From NCBI GenBank assembly GCA_964545915.1, contig CAZJHQ010000013.1, positions 1,572-65,571 on the forward strand: DNA of 64,000 nt, read 5' to 3'. The translations under genes and the position numbers were made by a program. The stretch comes from an uncultured Candidatus Kuenenia sp. Lineage in GTDB: Bacteria > Planctomycetota > Planctomycetia > Pirellulales > UBA1268. This document shows positions 4,295 through 37,605 of this stretch, piece after piece. The notes under the pieces are model-generated. The model made no database searches. It was not told the origin of the DNA and worked only from the letters and a program-made list of their open reading frames with translations. The first letter of the stretch is position 1, and the number at the start of each line of letters is the position of its first letter.

Positions 4295-5420
4295 ATGGAC
4301 ACAGCACTCTTCCACCGCGCCGAAGCGATCCGGGCCCGCCTGCTCCAGCTGCGGGACTCCCTTTGACTGGGAGGGACGCAAGCAATCCGCCGCGCGGCTC
4401 GAAGGCGCCATGGGCGAGGCCGACTTCTGGAGCAATTCAGAGAAGGCCCAGGCCACGGTCGCGGAGCTGAAGACGGTCAACACGGTGCTCAAGCCGCTCG
4501 ATGAAGCGCTCGCCGTGGGCCGAGATCTCGAGGCGCTCGAGGAACTGGCCCGCGAGGACGAGTCGCTTGAAGGGGAGTTGGCGGCCGAGGCAGATCGCCT
4601 GACGAGGCTGGTCGACGCCCTGGAACTCGCCTCGCTCCTTTCCGGGCCGCACGACGCCAGCGACGCCCTGGTTTCGATCCATGCCCGTGACGGCGGCACC
4701 GACGCCAATGACTGGGCCGAGATGCTCCTGCGGATGTACTCGGCCTGGGCTTCGAAGCACGACTACACGGTGGAGCTGCTCGACCGTCAGGACGATGCCG
4801 TCGCCGGCATCCAGAGCGCCACCGTGGCGATCAAGGGGCCGTGGGCCTACGGCTATCTCAAGGGCGAGACCGGCATCCACCGGCTGGTGCGGATCAGCCC
4901 CTTCAACTCCGAAGGCAAGCGGCAGACGAGCTTCGCGGCGGTGGACGTGGCCCCGGAGATCGCGGATGACGACACCGAGGTGGAGATCAAGGACGAGGAC
5001 ATCCGCGAGGACGTGTTCCGGGCCAGCGGCGCCGGCGGCCAGCACGTCAACAAGACCTCCAGCGCCATCCGCCTCACCCACTTCCCCACCGGCATCGTCG
5101 TGCAATGCCAGAGCGAGCGCAGCCAGCACAAGAACCGGGCCACGGCGATCAAGATGCTGCGGGCCCGCATCGCCAGGCTTCAGGAAGAGAAGCGGGAGGC
5201 CGAGCAGCTCGCCCGCTACAAGCAACAGCCGAAAACCGGCTTCGGATCGCAGATTCGCAACTACTTCCTGCACCCCGACCAGCGGGTCAAGGATCAGCGA
5301 ACGGGCCACTACGTCGGCAATTTCCAAAGCGTGCTCGACGGCAACCTGGACGGCTTCTTCGACGCCTACCTGCGGTGGAAGGCCTCCGGGTCGGCCCCTG
5401 AGGCCGGCGGCGACGAATGA
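4295..5420 (+). CDS. prfB: Peptide chain release factor 2 (programmed +1 frameshift)
   Basis: ATG 4295 is in frame with CTT-TGA at 4361-4366. The +1 frame continues into RF2 with SPF and GGQ motifs (RISPFNSEGKRQTSF, GAGGQHVN). Confidence 0.95.
4351..4367 (+). promoter_or_regulatory. RF2 autoregulatory +1 frameshift site CTTTGAC
   Basis: gcgggactcc-CTT-TGA-C at codon 23, the canonical prfB slippery site with an upstream GGGA SD-like element. Confidence 0.9.
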
Positions 5421-27044: not shown

Positions 27045-27315
27045 CGGGAAAATCAGGATCGCGTGGACGGCGAGATTCCCAAGACCGTTGACGCTGGCGA
27101 GCCTGGCAGGCCTCCTCGCCGCGAGAGACTCTGGCGGGGGGCAAGCCCTCGGCCCCGACCGGCCACGACGGCGGGCGGGCTGGCCGGCCTGGAAAAGCGA
27201 CCTTGGTTTTTCGGCCGCGAAAACGGTCCGTTGCCCGTGATCGGCCTGGCGCTCGCTTTACAGGATAGAGAACCGCATGGTGCGAGACTCACTATCCAAG
27301 AAGGAGCAGGCGATC

Positions 27316-28326
27316 ATGGGCGGCATTGCAACGACTTCCCTGGACTCGGCGGCCAGGCCGGGGCGGCTTTTGGACCGGATTCGGCACGCGGCACGGTTGC
27401 GGCATTTGGCGACCAGCACCGAGAAGGCCTACGTGCACTGGGCGAAGCGGTTCGTGCTTTTTCACGGCCGCAGGCATCCGCAGGACATGGCTGAACCAGA
27501 GGTCAACGCCTTCCTGACACACCTGGCCGTCCACGAGCACGTCGCGGCTTCGACGCAGAACCAGGCCTTGGCGGCATTGCTTTTCCTGTACGCGAAAGTT
27601 CTCGGCCGGCCTCTGGAGCGCATGGAAGGCATCGTCCGTGCAAAACGGCCCAAGCGGCTGCCGGCCGTCCTCACGCCAGACGAGGTGCGTCGTGTTCTGG
27701 AATGCATGACCGGGGAGCACTGGCTGGTGGCCATGCTGCTGTACGGCGCCGGGCTGCGGCTCCTTGAGGCCCTACGATTGCGGGTCAAGGACATCGACAT
27801 GACGCACAACGTCCTCACGATCCGGGAGGCCAAAGGCAACAAGGACCGGGTCACCGTGCTTCCCTCCTGCCTGCGGGATCCGCTCGGCCGGCATCTCCAG
27901 CACCGTAGGCGGCAGCACGTGGCGGAGGTTGAAGCCGGTCGGGGCCGCGTGATGCTGCCCAAAGCCTTCGCGCGCAAGCATCCGAATGCCGAACTGGACT
28001 GGGCCTGGCAATGGGTGTTCACCGGCAAGAGTGACTTTCGTGACCGTGAAACGGGCCGCTTTTACCGCCATCACATCCACGAGACGGTGATTCAGCGGGC
28101 GGTTCGCGAGGCAGTGATCCGCGCGGGAGTCGAGCGGCGGGCGACCTGCCATACGCTGCGACACTCGTTCGCGACCCATCTCCTCCAGGATGGGGCCGAC
28201 ATCCGCACGGTGCAGGATCTCCTGGGCCACAACGACGTGAAGACGACGATGATCTACACGCACGTGCTCAACCGCGGAGGCGTGTCTGTTCGCAGCCCGG
28301 CGGACCGATTGGGGCTGGGGCAATGA
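27316..28326 (+). CDS. intI: Integron integrase
   Basis: [36 protein letters not shown] and [12 protein letters not shown], plus the IntI-specific insert [32 protein letters not shown]. Confidence 0.95.
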
Positions 28327-28616: not shown

Positions 28617-28910
28617 ATGAGCACTCCTGCCATTGAGATTCGTCCGTGGAGAGAGTGCCCGTTCACACGCGGCAGGCAGTATCGCGTCCGCCAGAGCTTC
28701 GCCGCATTGCGTGACTCCTTCACCGCCGGTGACATTCTCACCTTCGATTCCGACGCCTGGTCTCGATACGATGGCATTACTGGTTATTTTTTCCGACAAC
28801 CGTGCCGAGAGCGGCTGCGTGTGTGGGACATTGATGACGATGCAGACATCCAGATATGGAGAGAGCTTTTTGAGGAGCTGTCAGACACATTCACCCACAA
28901 CAACGCCTAA
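28617..28910 (+). CDS. Gene cassette 1: hypothetical protein (97 aa)
   Basis: The ORF fills the space between GTTAGGC and GCCTAAC; its stop lies inside the R'' box. Confidence 0.8.
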   Translation: MSTPAIEIRPWRECPFTRGRQYRVRQSFAALRDSFTAGDILTFDSDAWSRYDGITGYFFRQPCRERLRVWDIDDDADIQIWRELFEELSDTFTHNNA

Positions 28911-29245
28911 CCTTCTAAGGATTTGAGTTCGCGAAGCCGAACCTCAAATCCTCTGTTCAAGAAGCCCGGTGCCCCTGCGAGTGAGCCGCAGCGCTAGGGT
29001 AACGGTGGGCAGCGGAGCTGCCGCTAGAGTGTCACGGAGAGCGTGACGGCCGCCCGCTGGTGCTGATCGGCCTTGGCGACTGGGCTTTGAAGCCGTGCAG
29101 CGGGCTGACGGAGTGGTGTTGTGTGCGCGTCGCCGCGCACCGGCAGCGTTGAAAACCATGATGAGCGCGTACCGCGTCCGAGTCGCGACGAGCGCGATGA
29201 AAGACGGGAACGGTGATGACGGCGTGGCGCACTGGTGGCATCCGG

Positions 29246-30349
29246 TCAGCTCGTGTCGTGGATGGCAGAGGCGCGTTTGGGGAAGATGGCGACGACCCGC
29301 AGTTGTCCGCCGCACTCGCAGCAGCGTCGCGCCGGGAGGACGGGGGTGTCGGCAGCGGTCGTGGCGAGCAGCAGGAACTGTTCGCCGTTATTGAGCGTGA
29401 CGAGCCAGCGGACGGCTTCGATCGATATGGGGGCGTGTGCTCCCAGGAACCCGTAGTGCCGCACCTTCTGAAAGCCGCTTGGCAATACATGCTGAAGGAA
29501 GCGGCGGATGAACTCCATGGCATGGAGGGTCATCCTCCGCCAGCGGTTGGATCCGCTCCTGCGGTAGTAGAACGTGACCGTGTGGTCGTCGCAGGCGACG
29601 ATGCGGTGATCGCTGATGCCGACGCGGAACACGTAGGTCGCCAGATACTTCAGCGACATGCGGCCGTCGCCGACGGCTTTTGAGTGGACGACCCAGGCCC
29701 GTTTCCAGGCGGCCGGATCGACTTGCTCGAGCAGACCCGCCTTGCGGAGTTCCTCGCGGAACTTGGCCCGAAACAGGATCGACAACGCCTTGACCGGCAG
29801 GAAGAACGCCGGTCCGGAAGCGATCCAGGAGTTGCCATCAGCGGCGACGGCTCCGCCGGGCACGACGTAGTGGACGTGAGGGTGGTAGCCGAGGGTGCGA
29901 TCCCAGGTGTGGAGCACGCCGAAGAAGCCGGGCTGAGCGTCGCCGAGGAATCGCTTGTCGGCGGCGAGGGCCTGGATGGCCTTGCTCGACGCGTGGAAGA
30001 GAGCGGCGTAGACGGCGCGAGGGTTGCCCCGCGCCAGGCACCTCAGCTCGGAGGGCAGCGTGAACGTGAGCAGAAAATACGGGCAGGGCAGCAGGCGCGA
30101 AGTCTGTTTCTCGAGCCAGGCCCTGGTCTTCTCCTGCTGGCATGTCGGACAGTGCCGGTTGCCGCAGGATCGTCCCATGACATGGCTGCCGCCGCAGGTG
30201 GTGCAGGCGTACTGCACCTTCCCCAGCGCTCCGGTCCGGCAGGCACGGATGGCGCCGAGCACCTGGCGATGCAGGGGCGGCATCCGCGTGCCGAACCGGT
30301 CGAGATACTCCCCGCCATGCCGCCGCAGCACCTCGGCGACGGTCGGCAT
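29246..30349 (-). CDS. IS91-family Y2/HUH transposase with Zn-binding N-terminus
   Basis: CTTCG..SCGNRHCPTC, HTW..YHPHVH (HUH), YLATY (Y2) and FLQHVLP.GFQKVRHYG. Confidence 0.92.
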   Translation of the reverse strand: MPTVAEVLRRHGGEYLDRFGTRMPPLHRQVLGAIRACRTGALGKVQYACTTCGGSHVMGRSCGNRHCPTCQQEKTRAWLEKQTSRLLPCPYFLLTFTLPSELRCLARGNPRAVYAALFHASSKAIQALAADKRFLGDAQPGFFGVLHTWDRTLGYHPHVHYVVPGGAVAADGNSWIASGPAFFLPVKALSILFRAKFREELRKAGLLEQVDPAAWKRAWVVHSKAVGDGRMSLKYLATYVFRVGISDHRIVACDDHTVTFYYRRSGSNRWRRMTLHAMEFIRRFLQHVLPSGFQKVRHYGFLGAHAPISIEAVRWLVTLNNGEQFLLLATTAADTPVLPARRCCECGGQLRVVAIFPKRASAIHDTS

Positions 30350-30356
30350 GGCGCTA

Positions 30357-31235
30357 TTACTGCATGATCCGCTCGATGGCTTCGCGGGCGAGTTCCTGCC
30401 CGGTGGACGTGAGGTGCAGGTAGATCATGGTCGTCTGCAGGGAGCTGTGGCCCAGGTACTGCTGGATGAGCCGCAGGTTGACGCCCGCTTCGAGCAGATG
30501 GGTCGCGTAGCTGTGCCGCAGGGTGTGGACGCAGACTGACTTGCGGAAGCCGAGCTGCGCGACGACCTGCCGCATCGCCCCTTGCACGCTGCTGGCGGCC
30601 ATCGGGCTGGTCGCGGTGGACGCGTGTACGCGTCCCCGACCGAGGGCGGGAAACAAGAGCCGCGGATGGCGATGGGTGGCCCAATGCGCACGCAACGTCG
30701 CGAGCGTGCGGGCTGGCAGCGGGACGAACCGATCCTTGGCCCCCTTGCCACGGTGCACGTGGACGAGCATGCGGGCACTGTCGATGTCGCCCAGCTCCAG
30801 GGCCAGCCCTTCCTGAAGCCTCAGGCCTAGCGAGTAGACGGTCCAGAGGAAGGCACGGTTGTGCGGGGTGCGGACGGCGTCGAGCAGCCGATGCACCTCG
30901 TCGACGGTCAGCACGTCGGGCAGCGTCTTCTGCTTGGGGACGCGGAGCTTGAGGAGCGTGGCCCAGTCCCGCGGCACGCAGTGGGTGTAGAAGAACTTGA
31001 TGCCGCTGTGGGCGATCTTGAGGGCGCTGGGAGAGAACCGGCGGTCGTTCTTGAGGTACAGGAAGTAGTCGCGGACCTGCGGCTCGGTGAGCCGGTCCGG
31101 GCACTGGCGGTAGTGGTCCGCCAGCTTTCGCACGGCACGGACATAGGCTTCCTGGGTGCGTTCGCTGCGGCCTGCGAGCTGGAGGTCCTGGATCATCCGC
31201 TGACGCAGCGCGGTCGTGGGGCGAGGAGCGATCAT
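30357..31235 (-). CDS. Tyrosine recombinase (SAM-like N-terminus) carried by the IS91-like element
   Basis: YSLGLRLQE, GKGAKDR, HTLRHSYATHLL and LGHSSLQTTMIY. Confidence 0.92.
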   Translation of the reverse strand: MIAPRPTTALRQRMIQDLQLAGRSERTQEAYVRAVRKLADHYRQCPDRLTEPQVRDYFLYLKNDRRFSPSALKIAHSGIKFFYTHCVPRDWATLLKLRVPKQKTLPDVLTVDEVHRLLDAVRTPHNRAFLWTVYSLGLRLQEGLALELGDIDSARMLVHVHRGKGAKDRFVPLPARTLATLRAHWATHRHPRLLFPALGRGRVHASTATSPMAASSVQGAMRQVVAQLGFRKSVCVHTLRHSYATHLLEAGVNLRLIQQYLGHSSLQTTMIYLHLTSTGQELAREAIERIMQ

Positions 31236-31324
31236 CGTGAAAACCTTTCGCAAAGGAGGAAGAAAAACCCTTGCGAGCGACGATGATTGCGGCGATGGCA
31301 CGTGGCCACCGAGGCCGGTCACGC

Positions 31325-31353
31325 CTGAAAGGCCGGGGCGATCCGGCTACAAT
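31325..31353 (+). promoter_or_regulatory. Putative outward-facing sigma70 promoter at the terIS end (also at 34689-34717)
   Basis: CTGAAA-17 nt-TACAAT, pointing out of the element into the next cassette. Confidence 0.55.
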
Positions 31354-31389
31354 GAGCGGGCTGAAAGCAGCCTGCCGCGGAGCGGCTTA

Positions 31390-31478
31390 CTTGAACCACC
31401 CGATGCAATGGACTCGCGGCAGCGTCCAGCGGGATGGATAATTCCGTGGTCGCGAGCCATTGATCGGGGCCGTTCGCT
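31390..31478 (+). other. attC1 (R'' rebuilt from the IS end; original R'' GCCTAAC at 28905-28911)
   Basis: GAAC-caccc-GAT[G]CAATGG[A]CTCGCG...CGCGAGCCATTGATC..GTTCGCT forms an imperfect hairpin with two extrahelical bases. Confidence 0.85.
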
Positions 31479-31485
31479 CATAACC

Positions 31486-32253
31486 ATGACAACATTCGAT
31501 CCGCAGAACGCCTTTGAGCAGTCGCTGGAGAAGGCGGCAACCGATCCGTCGCATCGACCGCAGTTCTATCGGGACTTGACCGCTGCTGAGTTCTTCATTG
31601 TCCAGCCCACCCCTCCCGCAGGGCGCAGCGGGCGTCGCGTCACGGAAGCACAGGAATCCATCAAAGTCGGTCAAATCGAGTGGAACGGGAAGAGCTTTAT
31701 CCCAGTTTTCTCGTCTCTAAAGCGACTGGAAGCAGGGCTGACTGAACCGGCTGGGTTTCTGGCCATCAACGCGATGGAGTTCATGAAGATCACCAAGGGA
31801 GCAAACCTTCTGCTGAACCCTGGCGCGGCGTTCGGTAAGGAATTGCCCGCGGAGGAGATTTCATCGATTCTCGACGGAACGATATGGGAGCCATCGGAGC
31901 GTGTGGAGACGAAGGAGGAAGAACAAGTCCTGATCGGCCAGCCCGCGCGTTACCCTGAAGAATTGGTTGCCGCTCTAGCGCGCTATTTCAGTACCCGGAA
32001 GTCGGTGCGACGTGCATTCATCGCTATGTACTTCAACCCGAAGCGCGATGAGAAGCCCCACACACTTATCGCGATTGAAGTCACCGGCGAATGGGAGCCA
32101 GTGGTAGCAGGAGCGGGAATGATTGCTCGCGAAGTCTCTGTCCCCGACCCACCCGTCGACTTCATGCAGATTTCGGGAAGGGGTGGTATCGAGGAGCACT
32201 TCACAAAGGGCGGCCAGCCGTTCTATCGCCGTAAGTTTCTTGGGATGTTTTAG
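31486..32253 (+). CDS. sseB: Gene cassette 2: SseB-family protein (enhanced serine sensitivity)
   Basis: IPVFSSL..L, NPG..FGKEL..EEI and the C-terminal SseB_C-like VLIGQP..YP.EL. Flanked by GTTCGCT and AGCGAAC. Confidence 0.8.
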   Translation: MTTFDPQNAFEQSLEKAATDPSHRPQFYRDLTAAEFFIVQPTPPAGRSGRRVTEAQESIKVGQIEWNGKSFIPVFSSLKRLEAGLTEPAGFLAINAMEFMKITKGANLLLNPGAAFGKELPAEEISSILDGTIWEPSERVETKEEEQVLIGQPARYPEELVAALARYFSTRKSVRRAFIAMYFNPKRDEKPHTLIAIEVTGEWEPVVAGAGMIAREVSVPDPPVDFMQISGRGGIEEHFTKGGQPFYRRKFLGMF

Positions 32254-32609
32254 CCGAGTGCCAGGAAGAGCGAACCTTCTAAGGATTTGAGTTCGCGAAG
32301 CCGAACCTCAAATCCTCTGTTCAAGAAGCCCGGTGCCCCTGCGAGTGAGCCGCAGCGCTAGGGTAACGGTGGGCAGCGGAGCTGCCGCTAGAGTGTCACG
32401 GAGAGCGTGACGGCCGCCCGCTGGTGCTGATCGGCCTTGGCGACTGGGCTTTGAAGCCGTGCAGCGGGCTGACGGAGTGGTGTTGTGTGCGCGTCGCCGC
32501 GCACCGGCAGCGTTGAAAACCATGATGAGCGCGTACCGCGTCCGAGTCGCGACGAGCGCGATGAAAGACGGGAACGGTGATGACGGCGTGGCGCACTGGT
32601 GGCATCCGG

Positions 32610-33713
32610 TCAGCTCGTGTCGTGGATGGCAGAGGCGCGTTTGGGGAAGATGGCGACGACCCGCAGTTGTCCGCCGCACTCGCAGCAGCGTCGCGCCGGG
32701 AGGACGGGGGTGTCGGCAGCGGTCGTGGCGAGCAGCAGGAACTGTTCGCCGTTATTGAGCGTGACGAGCCAGCGGACGGCTTCGATCGATATGGGGGCGT
32801 GTGCTCCCAGGAACCCGTAGTGCCGCACCTTCTGAAAGCCGCTTGGCAATACATGCTGAAGGAAGCGGCGGATGAACTCCATGGCATGGAGGGTCATCCT
32901 CCGCCAGCGGTTGGATCCGCTCCTGCGGTAGTAGAACGTGACCGTGTGGTCGTCGCAGGCGACGATGCGGTGATCGCTGATGCCGACGCGGAACACGTAG
33001 GTCGCCAGATACTTCAGCGACATGCGGCCGTCGCCGACGGCTTTTGAGTGGACGACCCAGGCCCGTTTCCAGGCGGCCGGATCGACTTGCTCGAGCAGAC
33101 CCGCCTTGCGGAGTTCCTCGCGGAACTTGGCCCGAAACAGGATCGACAACGCCTTGACCGGCAGGAAGAACGCCGGTCCGGAAGCGATCCAGGAGTTGCC
33201 ATCAGCGGCGACGGCTCCGCCGGGCACGACGTAGTGGACGTGAGGGTGGTAGCCGAGGGTGCGATCCCAGGTGTGGAGCACGCCGAAGAAGCCGGGCTGA
33301 GCGTCGCCGAGGAATCGCTTGTCGGCGGCGAGGGCCTGGATGGCCTTGCTCGACGCGTGGAAGAGAGCGGCGTAGACGGCGCGAGGGTTGCCCCGCGCCA
33401 GGCACCTCAGCTCGGAGGGCAGCGTGAACGTGAGCAGAAAATACGGGCAGGGCAGCAGGCGCGAAGTCTGTTTCTCGAGCCAGGCCCTGGTCTTCTCCTG
33501 CTGGCATGTCGGACAGTGCCGGTTGCCGCAGGATCGTCCCATGACATGGCTGCCGCCGCAGGTGGTGCAGGCGTACTGCACCTTCCCCAGCGCTCCGGTC
33601 CGGCAGGCACGGATGGCGCCGAGCACCTGGCGATGCAGGGGCGGCATCCGCGTGCCGAACCGGTCGAGATACTCCCCGCCATGCCGCCGCAGCACCTCGG
33701 CGACGGTCGGCAT
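32610..33713 (-). CDS. IS91-family Y2/HUH transposase (copy 2)
   Basis: Identical protein to 29246-30349. Confidence 0.92.
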   Translation of the reverse strand: MPTVAEVLRRHGGEYLDRFGTRMPPLHRQVLGAIRACRTGALGKVQYACTTCGGSHVMGRSCGNRHCPTCQQEKTRAWLEKQTSRLLPCPYFLLTFTLPSELRCLARGNPRAVYAALFHASSKAIQALAADKRFLGDAQPGFFGVLHTWDRTLGYHPHVHYVVPGGAVAADGNSWIASGPAFFLPVKALSILFRAKFREELRKAGLLEQVDPAAWKRAWVVHSKAVGDGRMSLKYLATYVFRVGISDHRIVACDDHTVTFYYRRSGSNRWRRMTLHAMEFIRRFLQHVLPSGFQKVRHYGFLGAHAPISIEAVRWLVTLNNGEQFLLLATTAADTPVLPARRCCECGGQLRVVAIFPKRASAIHDTS

Positions 33714-33720
33714 GGCGCTA

Positions 33721-34599
33721 TTACTGCATGATCCGCTCGATGGCTTCGCGGGCGAGTTCCTGCCCGGTGGACGTGAGGTGCAGGTAGATCATGGTCGTCT
33801 GCAGGGAGCTGTGGCCCAGGTACTGCTGGATGAGCCGCAGGTTGACGCCCGCTTCGAGCAGATGGGTCGCGTAGCTGTGCCGCAGGGTGTGGACGCAGAC
33901 TGACTTGCGGAAGCCGAGCTGCGCGACGACCTGCCGCATCGCCCCTTGCACGCTGCTGGCGGCCATCGGGCTGGTCGCGGTGGACGCGTGTACGCGTCCC
34001 CGACCGAGGGCGGGAAACAAGAGCCGCGGATGGCGATGGGTGGCCCAATGCGCACGCAACGTCGCGAGCGTGCGGGCTGGCAGCGGGACGAACCGATCCT
34101 TGGCCCCCTTGCCACGGTGCACGTGGACGAGCATGCGGGCACTGTCGATGTCGCCCAGCTCCAGGGCCAGCCCTTCCTGAAGCCTCAGGCCTAGCGAGTA
34201 GACGGTCCAGAGGAAGGCACGGTTGTGCGGGGTGCGGACGGCGTCGAGCAGCCGATGCACCTCGTCGACGGTCAGCACGTCGGGCAGCGTCTTCTGCTTG
34301 GGGACGCGGAGCTTGAGGAGCGTGGCCCAGTCCCGCGGCACGCAGTGGGTGTAGAAGAACTTGATGCCGCTGTGGGCGATCTTGAGGGCGCTGGGAGAGA
34401 ACCGGCGGTCGTTCTTGAGGTACAGGAAGTAGTCGCGGACCTGCGGCTCGGTGAGCCGGTCCGGGCACTGGCGGTAGTGGTCCGCCAGCTTTCGCACGGC
34501 ACGGACATAGGCTTCCTGGGTGCGTTCGCTGCGGCCTGCGAGCTGGAGGTCCTGGATCATCCGCTGACGCAGCGCGGTCGTGGGGCGAGGAGCGATCAT
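33721..34599 (-). CDS. Tyrosine recombinase of the IS91-like element (copy 2)
   Basis: Identical protein to 30357-31235. Confidence 0.92.
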   Translation of the reverse strand: MIAPRPTTALRQRMIQDLQLAGRSERTQEAYVRAVRKLADHYRQCPDRLTEPQVRDYFLYLKNDRRFSPSALKIAHSGIKFFYTHCVPRDWATLLKLRVPKQKTLPDVLTVDEVHRLLDAVRTPHNRAFLWTVYSLGLRLQEGLALELGDIDSARMLVHVHRGKGAKDRFVPLPARTLATLRAHWATHRHPRLLFPALGRGRVHASTATSPMAASSVQGAMRQVVAQLGFRKSVCVHTLRHSYATHLLEAGVNLRLIQQYLGHSSLQTTMIYLHLTSTGQELAREAIERIMQ

Positions 34600-34753
34600 C
34601 GTGAAAACCTTTCGCAAAGGAGGAAGAAAAACCCTTGCGAGCGACGATGATTGCGGCGATGGCACGTGGCCACCGAGGCCGGTCACGCCTGAAAGGCCGG
34701 GGCGATCCGGCTACAATGAGCGGGCTGAAAGCAGCCTGCCGCGGAGCGGCTTA

Positions 34754-34841
34754 CTTGAACAAAGCGATGCAGCGGACTCGCGATAAAATCCGGCGGTGTG
34801 GTTCGTCCAAGGCTGCGAGCCGCTGATCGCGGCCGTTCGCA
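34754..34841 (+). other. attC2 (R'' rebuilt from the IS end; original R'' AGCGAAC at 32269-32275)
   Basis: GAAC-aaagc-GAT[G]CAGCGG[A]CTCGC...GCGAGCCGCTGATC..GTTCGCA. Confidence 0.85.
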
Positions 34842-35932: not shown

Positions 35933-35958
35933 AGTCGTAGGGAAGCGCAATGCGAACC

Positions 35959-37524
35959 TCTCTATGGCCTCTGAAGTCAAGTAGGCGCACCGGTATCGTC
36001 GACCTCGAAACATTTTCATTTTTCCAGCCGATCTTCGGCTTTTTGTGTTTCGGGTTCGAGCGGGGCTGGCAGCGGGCCCTGACCGGTCGGCGACGCGGAA
36101 TCCTTCTTCATCGGGAGTCGGGCGTGCCAGGTGCGTCCTGACACGACCGCGCCAAACATCTCTCTGAGGCTCGGCCGCAGACCTGGGTGCCCGTGAGGTG
36201 TCACCCTGGGTGCGGTGCATGATCAGGCCTGTGTTCAGGCCCGGTCGCACGCAGGCGAGCCGCCGCCAGGCGGCGAGTCCTGCGTGAAGACCATGCGTCC
36301 TCGAAGTTCATCCGTTCGTTCCCAGCGGCTATTCAAAGCGTCGAGTGCGTGCTCGAGGCACGCCTCCGTTCAGGTCGGCTCGTGAGACCGGCGGTCGCGT
36401 GTGTATTGGGTCAGTGCTTCGTGCTCATCTCCCTGTGTGTGCTCGTGAATGGTGGCGGGCGCTGGCCGGTGGCTCTTCCAAGAAAGTGAGTCGGCGGTCT
36501 TCGGCACGGCACTGGGGCGGAAGGAGGTGGAGCCACAGGCTCCTCCTCCTTCGGGCGGTCAGGGGGGGTTCGTGTACCGTCTCTTCTGTAAATCACCGGT
36601 AGGGGCCTGACCGAGTCGAGCGTAGGAGACGAACTGCCCGATGTTCTCTAAGCGGTTCACGTCCCGGATCTCGTAGAGCATCACCAGCGACAGCACCTTG
36701 CCAACGCCGGTGATCGTCTGCAGCAGGTGCAGCCGCGCCGGGTCGTGCACCTTGGCGTGCTTGAGGACGTGGGTCTCGAGCCTGGCGATCGTCTCGTCGA
36801 GCTGCTTGATGACATCGATGTCGGCGTCCAGCATCACCTGCACGCTCGTGTCCTCGAAGGCGGACATGGCGATGCCCTCTCGCACTCTGTCCCGCCCCTT
36901 GCCGCTCGTGGTCGGCACGTTGTCCTGCGTGTGGGTGTTCTGCACGTGGGCGAGCAGTTCGGCCCGCCTGCGGACGAGCAGGGTCCGCCGCCGCAGCAGG
37001 TCGCGGGTGCCCCGCATCTCCTTGGGGTACACGTGCGCCAGTGGAAACGTGCCACCGCGCAGGAGCCTGGCGATCTTCTCGGAGTCGATGCGATCGTTCT
37101 TCGCCTTCCCGCCGTGGATCGCCTTCATGTACAGGGCGTGGCCGAGCACGAACTCGATTCCCTCCGCCCGGCACCAGTCGGCAAGCCAGTACCAGGAAAA
37201 CATGCACTCGGCCCCGACCACGAGGCTCGCCCGGTAGGGTGCCAGGGCCCGCTTCAGGGGATCGGGCTCGGCCCGCATGTTGCGGTGCAGGACGACGTTG
37301 CCTTGGTCGTCGAGGATGCAGACGTACATCTTGCTCGCGTGGAGATCGATGCCGCAGTAGAATCGCCGCTGTTCACGATAAAACCTCATCATGGCCCTCC
37401 TGCTGGTGCGTGACGGTGAGCCTCGTTGCCGACAACGCTTCGGCACAAATGACGCCGAGCCCCGAGCTCGTCACGGGTTTATAGGACTCCGTCGCCCCCA
37501 TGCAGGAGGCCATGATGAGCATCC
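35959..37524 (-). mobile_element. Defective IS110-family (IS1111-type) element inserted in attC3
   Basis: Subterminal inverted repeats ATGGCCTC (35964-35971) and GAGGCCAT (37506-37513), a long non-coding region 3' of tnp, and TTGACT near the right end. Confidence 0.8.
36559..37392 (-). pseudogene. IS110-family transposase, C-terminally truncated
   Basis: DEDD N-terminus (CGIDLH, VVGAE, KNDRIDS) and LLQTITGVG. It breaks at SYARL, where a foreign GQAPTGDLQ tail replaces the catalytic-Ser region. Confidence 0.8.
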
Positions 37525-37605
37525 AGGCGTTGGAGCAGACTCGCGATAGCGTCCTGCGGTATGGTGAGGTTGTTGGCTGCGAGCTGCTCAACTTTTTCGT
37601 TCCGT
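37525..37605 (+). other. attC3 remainder (R'' TGCGAAC separated by IS1111)
   Basis: aggc-GTT[G]GAGCAG[A]CTCGC...GCGAGCTGCTCAAC..GTTCCGT. Confidence 0.8.

Follow-up and report, generated by a model that had tools for sequence, protein, structure and literature searches.

Results

An inverted-integrase integron with interrupted attC sites

The 64,000-nucleotide stretch that we analysed (hereafter the window) carries an integron in which insertion sequences lie within attC sites, the recombination sites by which bacteria collect and shuffle gene cassettes. The features of the locus are the following:

27277..28326, + strand: integron integrase gene intI (TIGR02249, 450 bits, cutoff 265; Pfam Phage_int_SAM_4 and Phage_integrase)
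28617..28910, + strand: cassette 1 ORF, 97 aa, no Pfam family match; TAA stop within the R'' core
28905..28911, + strand: R'' core of attC1, GCCTAAC, identified from sequence, cut off from the rest of the site by copy 1
28912..31396, - strand: IS91-family element with tyrosine recombinase (YR) gene, copy 1 (2485 bp), identical to copy 2
29246..30349, - strand: Y2 (HUH) transposase gene of copy 1, zinc-binding N-terminus (Pfam Zn_Tnp_IS91 and Y2_Tnp; NCBIfam IS91 family transposase, transpos_IS91, 369 bits, cutoff 125)
30357..31322, - strand: YR gene of copy 1, Xer/IntI-like (best families XerA and IntI, both below cutoff)
31397..31478, + strand: remainder of attC1 (spacer CACCC, L'', loop, L', R' GTTCGCT); model match 31390-31478, 88 bits, and motif match
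31479..32275, + strand: cassette 2, SseB-like ORF ending at 32253 (Pfam SseB and SseB_C), R'' core AGCGAAC at 32269-32275
32276..34760, - strand: IS91-family element with YR gene, copy 2 (Y2 32610-33713; YR 33721-34686), identical to copy 1
34761..34841, + strand: remainder of attC2; model match 34754-34841, 86.5 bits
35958..37523, - strand: IS1111-type (DEDD) insertion sequence (Pfam DEDD_Tnp_IS110 and Transposase_20; NCBIfam IS110 family)
38254..38343, + strand: intact attC4, the uninterrupted reference site; model match, 72.9 bits
38835..39429, - strand: second IS1111-type copy, internally deleted and truncated, after TCGAAC (repeat families D2 and D3)
39489..39543, - strand: solo oriIS "mini-element" (hairpin and start of IRR) with 95% identity to the oriIS end, joined to an attC L'' half at 39543-39560

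The intI gene is oriented as the cassettes are, which is the arrangement of inverted-integrase integrons, and about five cassettes lie downstream, the first of them starting with GTTAGGC at ~28607. In alignment, its product shows the IntI-specific additional domain as an insertion of ~30 aa relative to the YR of the element. The attC sites form an array in one orientation, with R''/R' cores, an L''/L' stem and bulged bases. Four stretches, 31390-31478, 34754-34841, 37517-37605 and 38254-38343, match a covariance model for attC sites of the local type (E-values 1e-18 to 2e-25); as the model was partly built from interrupted sites, only matches at other loci and at uninterrupted sites are independent, and independent support for the integron therefore comes from the intact attC4 and the arrays found at other loci. 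With an integrase scoring 450 bits and four attC model matches, the host structure is a real integron.

Two identical elements at the same position of two attC sites

Positions 28909-31396 and 32273-34760 are 100% identical across 2488 bp, which comprise the 2485-bp element and a common AAC; we give the shorter length because these first three nucleotides also belong to the target core. On the + strand (slashes mark the junctions) copy 1 reads ...AACGCCTAAC/CTTCTAAGG...CTTACTTGAAC/CACCCGATGCAATGG and copy 2 reads ...GAAGAGCGAAC/CTTCTAAGG...CTTGAAC/AAAGCGATGCAGCGG, with no direct repeat or target duplication at the junctions of either copy beyond the 3-nt AAC overlap. Each copy lies between the R'' core (GCCTAAC and AGCGAAC, respectively) and the 5-nt spacer of a separate attC, antisense to the cassettes; on the strand of the element genes, which is the attC bottom strand, the insertion point is immediately 5' of GTTRRRY. 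Exact alignment and junctions thus agree with an earlier note on this DNA, which had described two identical 2485-bp copies at one position in two different attC sites. When attC1 is rejoined in silico it takes an attC fold in which the R''/L'' arm has two bulged bases, and in the model match to the interrupted site the last seven nucleotides of the element (CTTGAAC) take the place of R''.

With both copies excised, the two strands of the window hold 524 GTT[AC] sites and about five attC R'' cores, so that two independent insertions at R'' would have a probability of about 1e-4 in this window alone. An assembly duplication, which the earlier note had named as an outcome that would undo its reading, is unlikely, since the arrangement of copy 1, cassette 2 and copy 2 recurs on an independent contig from a metagenome (L081, 98.5% identity to window positions 30209-33793).

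The 55-nt solo oriIS copy at 39489-39543, previously noted as a third footprint adjoining an attC half, proved to be real, being directly followed by the L'' motif CGATGCTATGAACTCGCG; the covariance model gave no match on the far half of this attC, which is degenerate. Mini-element units are also found in tandem beside full elements at other loci, they are bounded at IRR, and further loci show an altered left flank; these bounds and altered flanks may hint indirectly at rolling-circle transposition. Judging from the two 100% identical copies and from mini-elements bounded at IRR GTTC/CTTG sequences, the element appears to have been recently active.

The IS1111-type element at 35958-37523 occupies the same position between AAC and spacer, here in attC3 (R'' GCGAAC 35952-35957; remainder 37524-37605; model match 37517-37605). 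It combines a DEDD transposase, a long non-coding stretch downstream of tnp and an antisense insertion near the attC 5' end, the features of the IS1111-attC group.

Ends and proteins of the element

The oriIS end (28912-28967) contains a hairpin at 28919-28951 and the IRR GTTCAAGAAGCCC at 28955-28967, and the terIS end (31367-31396) contains the palindrome GCCGC-N3-GCGGC and the terminal CTTGAAC. We gathered homologues from genomes and metagenomes and numbered their loci from L001 on. The end motifs are conserved where the ends could be placed (~70 of the 153 loci counted), and the left end reads GTTCAAGTAAGCCGC-N3-5-GCGGC in most loci that include it. The residues H156-P-H158-x-H160 and Y235-x3-Y239 of the Y2 transposase do not vary among 21 homologues. 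The previous assignment to the IS91 type holds for those sequence features that were open to checking, namely a Y2 transposase, GTT(A/C) beside oriIS and the lack of duplication.

The YR scores 167 bits against the IntI family model (cutoff 265), in two stretches, and is 31% identical to the neighbouring IntI, with a gap of ~30 aa where the additional domain of the latter sits; all catalytic residues are present in this alignment. The solved structure closest to it by sequence is IntI4 on folded attC (2A3V, E 3.5e-30). In integron integrases, the additional domain reads the bulged bases of attC. The YR is not an integron integrase, as it lacks this domain and scores below the cutoff.

The junction of a circular form of the element is predicted to fold (dG -20 kcal/mol, z -5.6) such that an inner hairpin is enclosed by a 12-bp outer stem bearing one bulge. 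This fold is kept in 23 family members, with six pairs showing compensatory changes. Folding and compensatory substitutions within the family back both the oriIS hairpin and the base pairing between the element's two ends. Moreover, end trinucleotide, IRR and target co-vary, being GTT/GAAC/GTT in most lineages and ATT/GAAT/ATT in L029 and L049-L062.

Relatives are found at attC sites, in some lineages

Related Y2 transposases are abundant in metagenomes from the environment, numbering more than 7900. Within the close clade (relatives at 83-96% aa), 12 of the 14 distinct left flanks are attC bottom strands with the same cut, ending ...GCGAG(T)CCGCTG(C)AT-N5 at the junction. All 17 distinct right flanks of this clade begin with GTT, followed by A (9), C (7) or T (1), and the right-flank consensus over 83 distinct sites is GTT-A-(T/G)-G-C. 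The attC model match ends exactly at left junction +7, i.e. 7 nt inside the element, in 21 loci (L001, 4, 5, 21, 22, 24, 48, 50, 67, 78, 81, 83, 85, 87, 88, 93, 94, 95, 101, 102, 149), which come from Planctomycetota, Longimicrobium, Accumulibacter, delta-proteobacterial and Ca. Binatia MAGs. The element can lie inside an array, as in L088, where attC matches at 342, 915 and 1873 precede the insertion sequence and others follow at 5012, 5783 and 6724. The attC matches share the strand of the element genes in 85 of 89 cases, and the relatives at attC are always antisense to the cassettes.

At most loci a cassette ORF on the opposite strand stops 0-30 nt from the junction, often with a TAA within the core, and both bulged bases are on the arm adjoining the element. 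Read together, these ORF ends and the bulged-base arm indicate that the insertions are at R'' and not at R'. The flanks of homologues had been set beforehand as the test that could refute the proposal of attC homing made in the earlier note. The outcome spoke for that proposal: the homologues lie overwhelmingly at the R''/spacer boundary, as independent insertions at one fixed position and in one orientation in unrelated attC sites.

Other sub-lineages insert elsewhere, and attC homing is therefore a property of some lineages and not of the whole family. Sister lineages in Nitrospirota and Isosphaeraceae use other insertion sites and reach 9-12 dispersed copies per genome; no hairpin was detected upstream of their sites by a crude metric. 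Lineages whose targets are simple ATTC-like sites or otherwise not attC also have the YR gene. In L003/L090 and L089 the left flank is not an attC, yet a cassette R'' forms the right flank and an attC follows further downstream, and one genome has the same element twice, within an attC at L067 and outside attC at L064. A search for an empty site corresponding to any of the attC insertions found none.

Discussion

The position, orientation and recurrence of the insertions, the lack of target duplication and the conserved ends were observed directly. Our favoured explanation, which we consider probable, is that this is an active IS91-family insertion sequence carrying a tyrosine-recombinase gene, that its lineage inserts specifically between attC R'' and the 5-nt spacer, and that the Y2 transposase picks the folded target. 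The Y2/HUH transposase would mobilise the element as a single strand by rolling circle, as described for IS91, and would select on single-stranded folded DNA a stem-loop followed by 5-7 unpaired nucleotides and GTT. This layout, which reads AAC, 5-7 nt and stem-loop on the other strand, would be the same as at the element's own origin, so that a folded attC may mimic the oriIS end, and the circle junction of the element may itself take an attC-like shape. The recombinase would be accessory, for example in resolving or processing circular forms. The earlier note had tentatively attributed the specificity either to the folded attC strand or to the element's own recombinase; non-attC lineages carry a YR too, and the recombinase would therefore not be the specificity determinant, or at least does not explain it alone. 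Once inserted, the element provides a substitute R'' core with its terminal CTTGAAC, so that the downstream attC still looks complete, and cassette and element may stay mobilisable by IntI.

The shared 3-nt core and the lack of duplication are predicted by both Y2 and recombinase action, and sequence alone does not separate the two. Integration by the element's own YR is therefore a rival that we take seriously, although we judge it rather unlikely. The circular junction (IRR, hairpin, IRL) would fold like an attC and exchange one strand with the host's folded attC, at GTT on the R'' arm, with the Y2 only making circles, a reaction that would parallel the IntI-catalysed recombination of two attC sites except for its use of the opposite arm. 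That IntI4 is the closest solved relative of the YR by sequence keeps recombinase-driven integration plausible, and the full set of catalytic residues, the score against the IntI model and the attC-like layout of the junction fold also speak for it. Likewise, a GTT core at both junctions that co-varies with the target fits a recombination core, and the mini-element boundaries put the crossover within or 3' of the trinucleotide. However, the YR falls below the IntI cutoff and is devoid of the additional domain, the same gene is present in lineages at non-attC sites, a GTTC-like tetranucleotide and ori/ter palindromes typify the recombinase-free IS91, IS801 and IS1294, and a core of 3 nt is very short for a classical tyrosine recombinase. 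A related proposal, which we find doubtful, is that the element is a hybrid of insertion sequence and gene cassette, with its circular junction as a built-in attC mimic and an IntI-like recombinase exchanging a single strand with the R'' arm. If true, it would represent a second, integron-independent recombination system acting on attC hairpins, which might share descent with the origin of integron integrases or of attC sites.

True attC specificity could also be absent, with an ordinary GTTC-like IS91 target and attC copies surviving as harmless while others are purged. A tetranucleotide suffices for IS91 relatives, GTT is present in attC cores and some copies lie outside attC (L003, L089, L064); nevertheless, all attC insertions are at the same phosphodiester bond and in one orientation, at R'' and not at the equally GTT-bearing R', the window alone offers 524 GTT[AC] sites, the dispersed copies of the sister lineages show that other sites are tolerated, and the flank consensus reaches to GTTAKGC, which together make this explanation very improbable. 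Hardly credible at all is that a single old insertion was passively spread by IntI cassette movement or homologous recombination between attC sites, or that assembly merely duplicated the first copy. Such a history would fit the identity of the copies, the expectation that a cassette takes along any element placed between its ORF and its attC, and the chimeric flank combinations of some metagenome contigs (L093, L094, L095), but the two copies lie in cassettes, R'' cores, spacers and attC sequences that all differ, 14 left and 17 right flanks are distinct within the close clade, and an independent assembly holds the same two copies.

Among known systems, the element shares with canonical IS91, IS801 and IS1294 a Y2/HUH enzyme, the lack of duplication, the tetranucleotide and the oriIS and terIS palindromes. 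IS91-family elements are described (PMC13181058) as making no duplication, with oriIS adjoining a GTTC-like tetranucleotide and carrying a subterminal palindrome, and with a palindrome and GTTC at terIS; they form circular intermediates joining both ends and need only a tetranucleotide as target. Unlike these, our element has a second gene, its two ends pair in a 12-bp stem, and its target has grown from 4 nt to a stem-loop plus GTTAKGC, confined to the R'' boundary of attC. ISfinder also lists IS91-family members with an upstream integrase-like ORF, including ISShvi3, ISSod25, ISAzo26 and others, and we found related YR and IS91 pairs annotated on Vibrio, Photobacterium, Myroides and Clostridium plasmids. 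ISShvi3 has been reported "adjacent to an attC site" in a Shewanella integron (PMC9229058). Elements of this type share the two-gene layout, but their proteins are only ~35-44% identical to those described here, and the searchable literature states no targeting rule for them.

Among elements associated with integrons, those of the IS1111-attC group (ISPa21, ISPst6, ISKpn4) insert near the attC 5' end and antisense to the cassettes (PMC3001079), as our element does, and the IS1111-type element in attC3 sits at the very same position; their DEDD transposase is guided by a seekRNA (PMC11187229), while ours is an HUH/Y2 enzyme with no known guide RNA. Group IIC-attC introns likewise enter the attC bottom strand opposite to cassette transcription, with the stem-loop as landmark (PMC3001079), but they are retroelements (ribozyme and reverse transcriptase) and not DNA transposons. 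ISCR elements of complex class 1 integrons and sul4 modules are also IS91-like rolling-circle elements beside integrons, and attC sites have been reported at the end of ISCR28 (PMC12772301); unlike our element, they are single-gene, known for mobilising adjacent DNA, and are not known to have a defined attC position or to home to attC arrays. We found no explicit description of IS91-type attC homing in the searchable literature. In this respect the earlier suggestion that no such targeting class had been described stands, but with the reservation that hints exist for ISShvi3 (PMC9229058) and ISCR28 (PMC12772301).

The same spot is used in two attC sites of the window and in relatives from many bacteria, and what we describe therefore looks like a third kind of attC parasite, mechanistically unrelated to the others and based on HUH/Y2 plus a tyrosine recombinase. 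To our knowledge, IS1111-attC insertion sequences and group IIC-attC introns are the only attC-homing classes known so far. That a third class lands on the same few nucleotides in the same orientation suggests that folded attC is a general landing pad for mobile DNA that depends on single strands. The target choice of IS91-type transposases is poorly understood, and the element would also offer a natural system for studying how these enzymes read DNA structure. Finally, since the insertions part cassette genes from their attC and supply a substitute core, they could alter the mobility and expression of cassettes in chromosomal integrons.

Results

The two copies of the element (28909-31396 and 32273-34760) are identical across 2488 bp of the window sequence; since the opening AAC is shared with the target core, the element itself measures 2485 bp. 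On the + strand, with junctions marked by a caret, copy 1 reads GCCTAAC^CTTCTAAGG...CTTACTTGAAC^CACCCGATGC and copy 2 AGCGAAC^CTTCTAAGG...CTTGAAC^AAAGCGATGC, and apart from the shared AAC neither is accompanied by a target duplication. The following features are relevant here:

30357-31322, minus strand: tyrosine recombinase gene (Phage_int_SAM_4 and Phage_integrase), one per copy
29246-30349, minus strand: Y2 transposase gene (Zn_Tnp_IS91 and Y2_Tnp; NCBIfam IS91 transposase, 369 bits, cutoff 125), one per copy
39489-39543: solo copy of the oriIS end (55 nt), 95% identical to that end and running directly into an attC L'' motif

Sequence identity and junctions agree with the claim of the earlier note that two identical elements occupy the same position in different attC sites without duplication, and the third oriIS footprint that it placed beside an attC half is the solo end listed last. 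The same note had regarded an assembly duplication of the second copy as fatal to its reading; an independent contig (L081) carries the same two-copy arrangement at 98.5% identity.

The host integron has its integrase gene at 27277-28326 (TIGR02249, 450 bits, cutoff 265), followed by the cassettes on the same strand, so that gene and cassettes point the same way, as in integrons of the inverted-integrase type. The window has four occurrences of the motif CGATGCAATGGACTCGCG, against 0.16 expected. A covariance model made from 12 attC sites of the window's type matched at 31390-31478, 34754-34841, 37517-37605 and 38254-38343. The first two matches take the last 7 nt of the element (CTTGAAC) as R'', and therefore a complete-looking attC remains downstream of each insertion. 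A further site, attC3, is split at the same position between AAC and spacer by an IS1111-type (DEDD transposase) element at 35958-37523. In the last cassette, TCGAAC is followed by a second IS1111-type copy (38835-39429) that is truncated and carries an internal deletion. Altogether, the IS91-type element is represented in the five-cassette array by two full copies and a solo oriIS remnant, and the IS1111-type element by two copies. In cassette 3 no attC separates the two ORFs, of which one has a DinB_2 domain, and the array decays beside a tRNA-His gene (40321-40395).

Recognition of attC sites was settled by the covariance model. A naive scan of the window for AAC...GTT with folding was drowned in noise at 68% GC, and Rfam returned one tRNA match and no attC-like match in the window. 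Constrained folding energy did not discriminate reconstituted sites from control GTT sites; closing-stem pair counts performed better, with at least 18 pairs in 4% of controls.

Relatives of the transposase number more than 7900 at E below 1e-20, and scans of genomes and of metagenomes together yielded 153 loci. At the approximately 70 loci with locatable ends, the left end is conserved as (G/A)TTCAAGTAAGCCGC-N3-5-GCGGCAG and the right end as GGGCTTCTTGAAC, a hairpin, 6-9 nt and then a flank beginning GTT. The close clade, at 83-96% amino acid identity, comes from freshwater metagenomes and from MAGs of Pirellulales and Verrucomicrobia. Of its 14 distinct left flanks, 12 are an attC bottom strand that reaches the junction with ...GCGAG(T)CCGCTG(C)AT-N5. 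In the two exceptions (L003/L090/L091 and L089) the right flank is still a cassette R'', with an attC further downstream. In 21 loci from several phyla the match to the attC model stopped exactly 7 nt into the element; 11 of these loci had not contributed to the model (L005, L021, L022, L024, L048, L050, L067, L078, L081, L101 and L149).

Arrays are present on both sides of the element, and 85 of 89 attC matches lie on the strand of its genes. At most loci a cassette ORF on the opposite strand ends 0-30 nt from the junction, often with its TAA within the core; the arm adjoining the element carries both bulged bases, and the right flanks of 83 distinct sites share the consensus GTTA(T/G)GC. On these three grounds we place the insertion at R'' and not at R'. 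By our own arithmetic, about 2% of the GTT sites are R'' cores in these sequences, which are centred on integrons; against this background, 12 of 14 insertions at R'' is far beyond chance, of the order of 1e-18. An intI gene was found beside the relatives at only two loci (L005 and L041), and therefore the array context was taken from attC matches. Among all sequences gathered, no empty versions of the attC targets were found, only repeats of non-attC targets.

Some metagenome contigs (L093, L094, L095, L089 and L102) pair one left flank with differing right flanks, and vice versa. Either chimeric assembly across the repeat or genuine recombination between copies of the element could account for these mixed pairings.

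Discussion

The hallmarks of the IS91 family (PMC13181058) are all present at the sequence level: a Y2/HUH enzyme, no duplication, a GTTC-like tetranucleotide and a palindrome at oriIS, and GTTC with a palindrome at terIS. Moreover, the HxH and YxxxY motifs of the transposase are invariant.

Along the gene strand, the element's right end has GAAC, then 3 nt, a hairpin, 7 nt and, past the junction, GTT. The layout of the attC bottom strand matches it, with AAC, then 6 nt, a long stem, 5 nt and, at the same point, GTT. If the two ends are joined to mimic a circle, the hairpin becomes enclosed in a 12-bp stem that IRR forms with IRL and that contains a single bulged base (dG -20 kcal/mol, z -5.6). 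This fold is retained across 23 family members, and 6 of its pairs show compensatory changes. Because the layouts match and the circle-junction fold is kept, we propose that the transposase may recognize a stem-loop followed by a short spacer and GTT in folded single strands, at the element's origin as well as at the target.

The main rival is that the element's own recombinase performs the integration. This enzyme aligns with all catalytic residues of IntI, and IntI4 is its closest solved relative by sequence; however, it does not carry the IntI additional domain, and it is also encoded in all the non-attC sister lineages considered below (Nitrospirota and Isosphaeraceae), so that its presence is insufficient to explain attC homing. 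The proposal of an attC-homing rolling-circle element is supported overall, with either the Y2 transposase or, less probably, the recombinase behind the specificity.

Mini-elements of about 50-55 nt, composed of an oriIS-type GAAC, hairpin, 6-9 nt and GTT, occur alone or in head-to-tail tandems beside full elements (window 39489-39543; right ends of L008-L010, L013, L017, L037, L044, L070 and L079). They resemble abortive or prematurely terminated products that have IRR as their boundary. They begin with GTT where the IRR of the full element has CTT, which places the crossover within or 3' of this trinucleotide.

Known attC parasites, the IS1111-attC elements (PMC3001079, PMC11187229) and group IIC-attC introns (PMC3001079), insert near the attC 5' end in antisense (PMC3001079, PMC11187229). 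Our element shares this placement and orientation, but its enzyme is unrelated; the IS1111-type element of the window even has the exact insertion position in common with it. Explicit reports that IS91-type elements target attC were absent from the searchable literature, which gave only hints, namely ISShvi3 "adjacent to an attC" (PMC9229058) and attC sites reported at the end of ISCR28 (PMC12772301).

Plasmid searches returned distant relatives only (at most 44% amino acid identity). One, on Vibrio furnissii plasmid pMT14 (L154; NZ_CP115190.1 160432-168358), has the recombinase and IS91-transposase pair at 39% amino acid identity and the same end architecture. Its right end adjoins GTTAGAT and then arr (rifampin ADP-ribosyltransferase), co-oriented with the element, an arrangement that differs from that of the window.

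The Nitrospirota MAG CAWGYL holds at least eight near-identical copies of a 50%-identical relative (L030-L036, L039), all in a conserved repeat of about 100 nt whose layout is not attC-like (left flank ...GATGGGGTATTTT...TTCAG^, right flank GTTGAAATT...GTTGCAA..TGGCAAC hairpin). Relatives in Isosphaeraceae/Planctomycetota MAGs (L011, L012, L014, L015, L020) lie beside tandem repeats containing GGGGTCAGA(C/T)C, and at L020 the 120-nt target also occurs uninterrupted about 200 bp away.

Sister lineages target other sites. One Nitrospirota genome has at least 12 copies with ATT at both ends, an IRR ending GAAT and dispersed ATTC-like targets; in a second, copies lie within a conserved repeat of about 100 nt, and Isosphaeraceae copies are placed in GGGGTCAGAYC tandem repeats. 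By a crude "hairpin just upstream" metric, usable for three groups, the Nitrospirota lineages seem to have no hairpin upstream. Given these other targets, we conclude that attC homing is a trait of some lineages scattered over the family.
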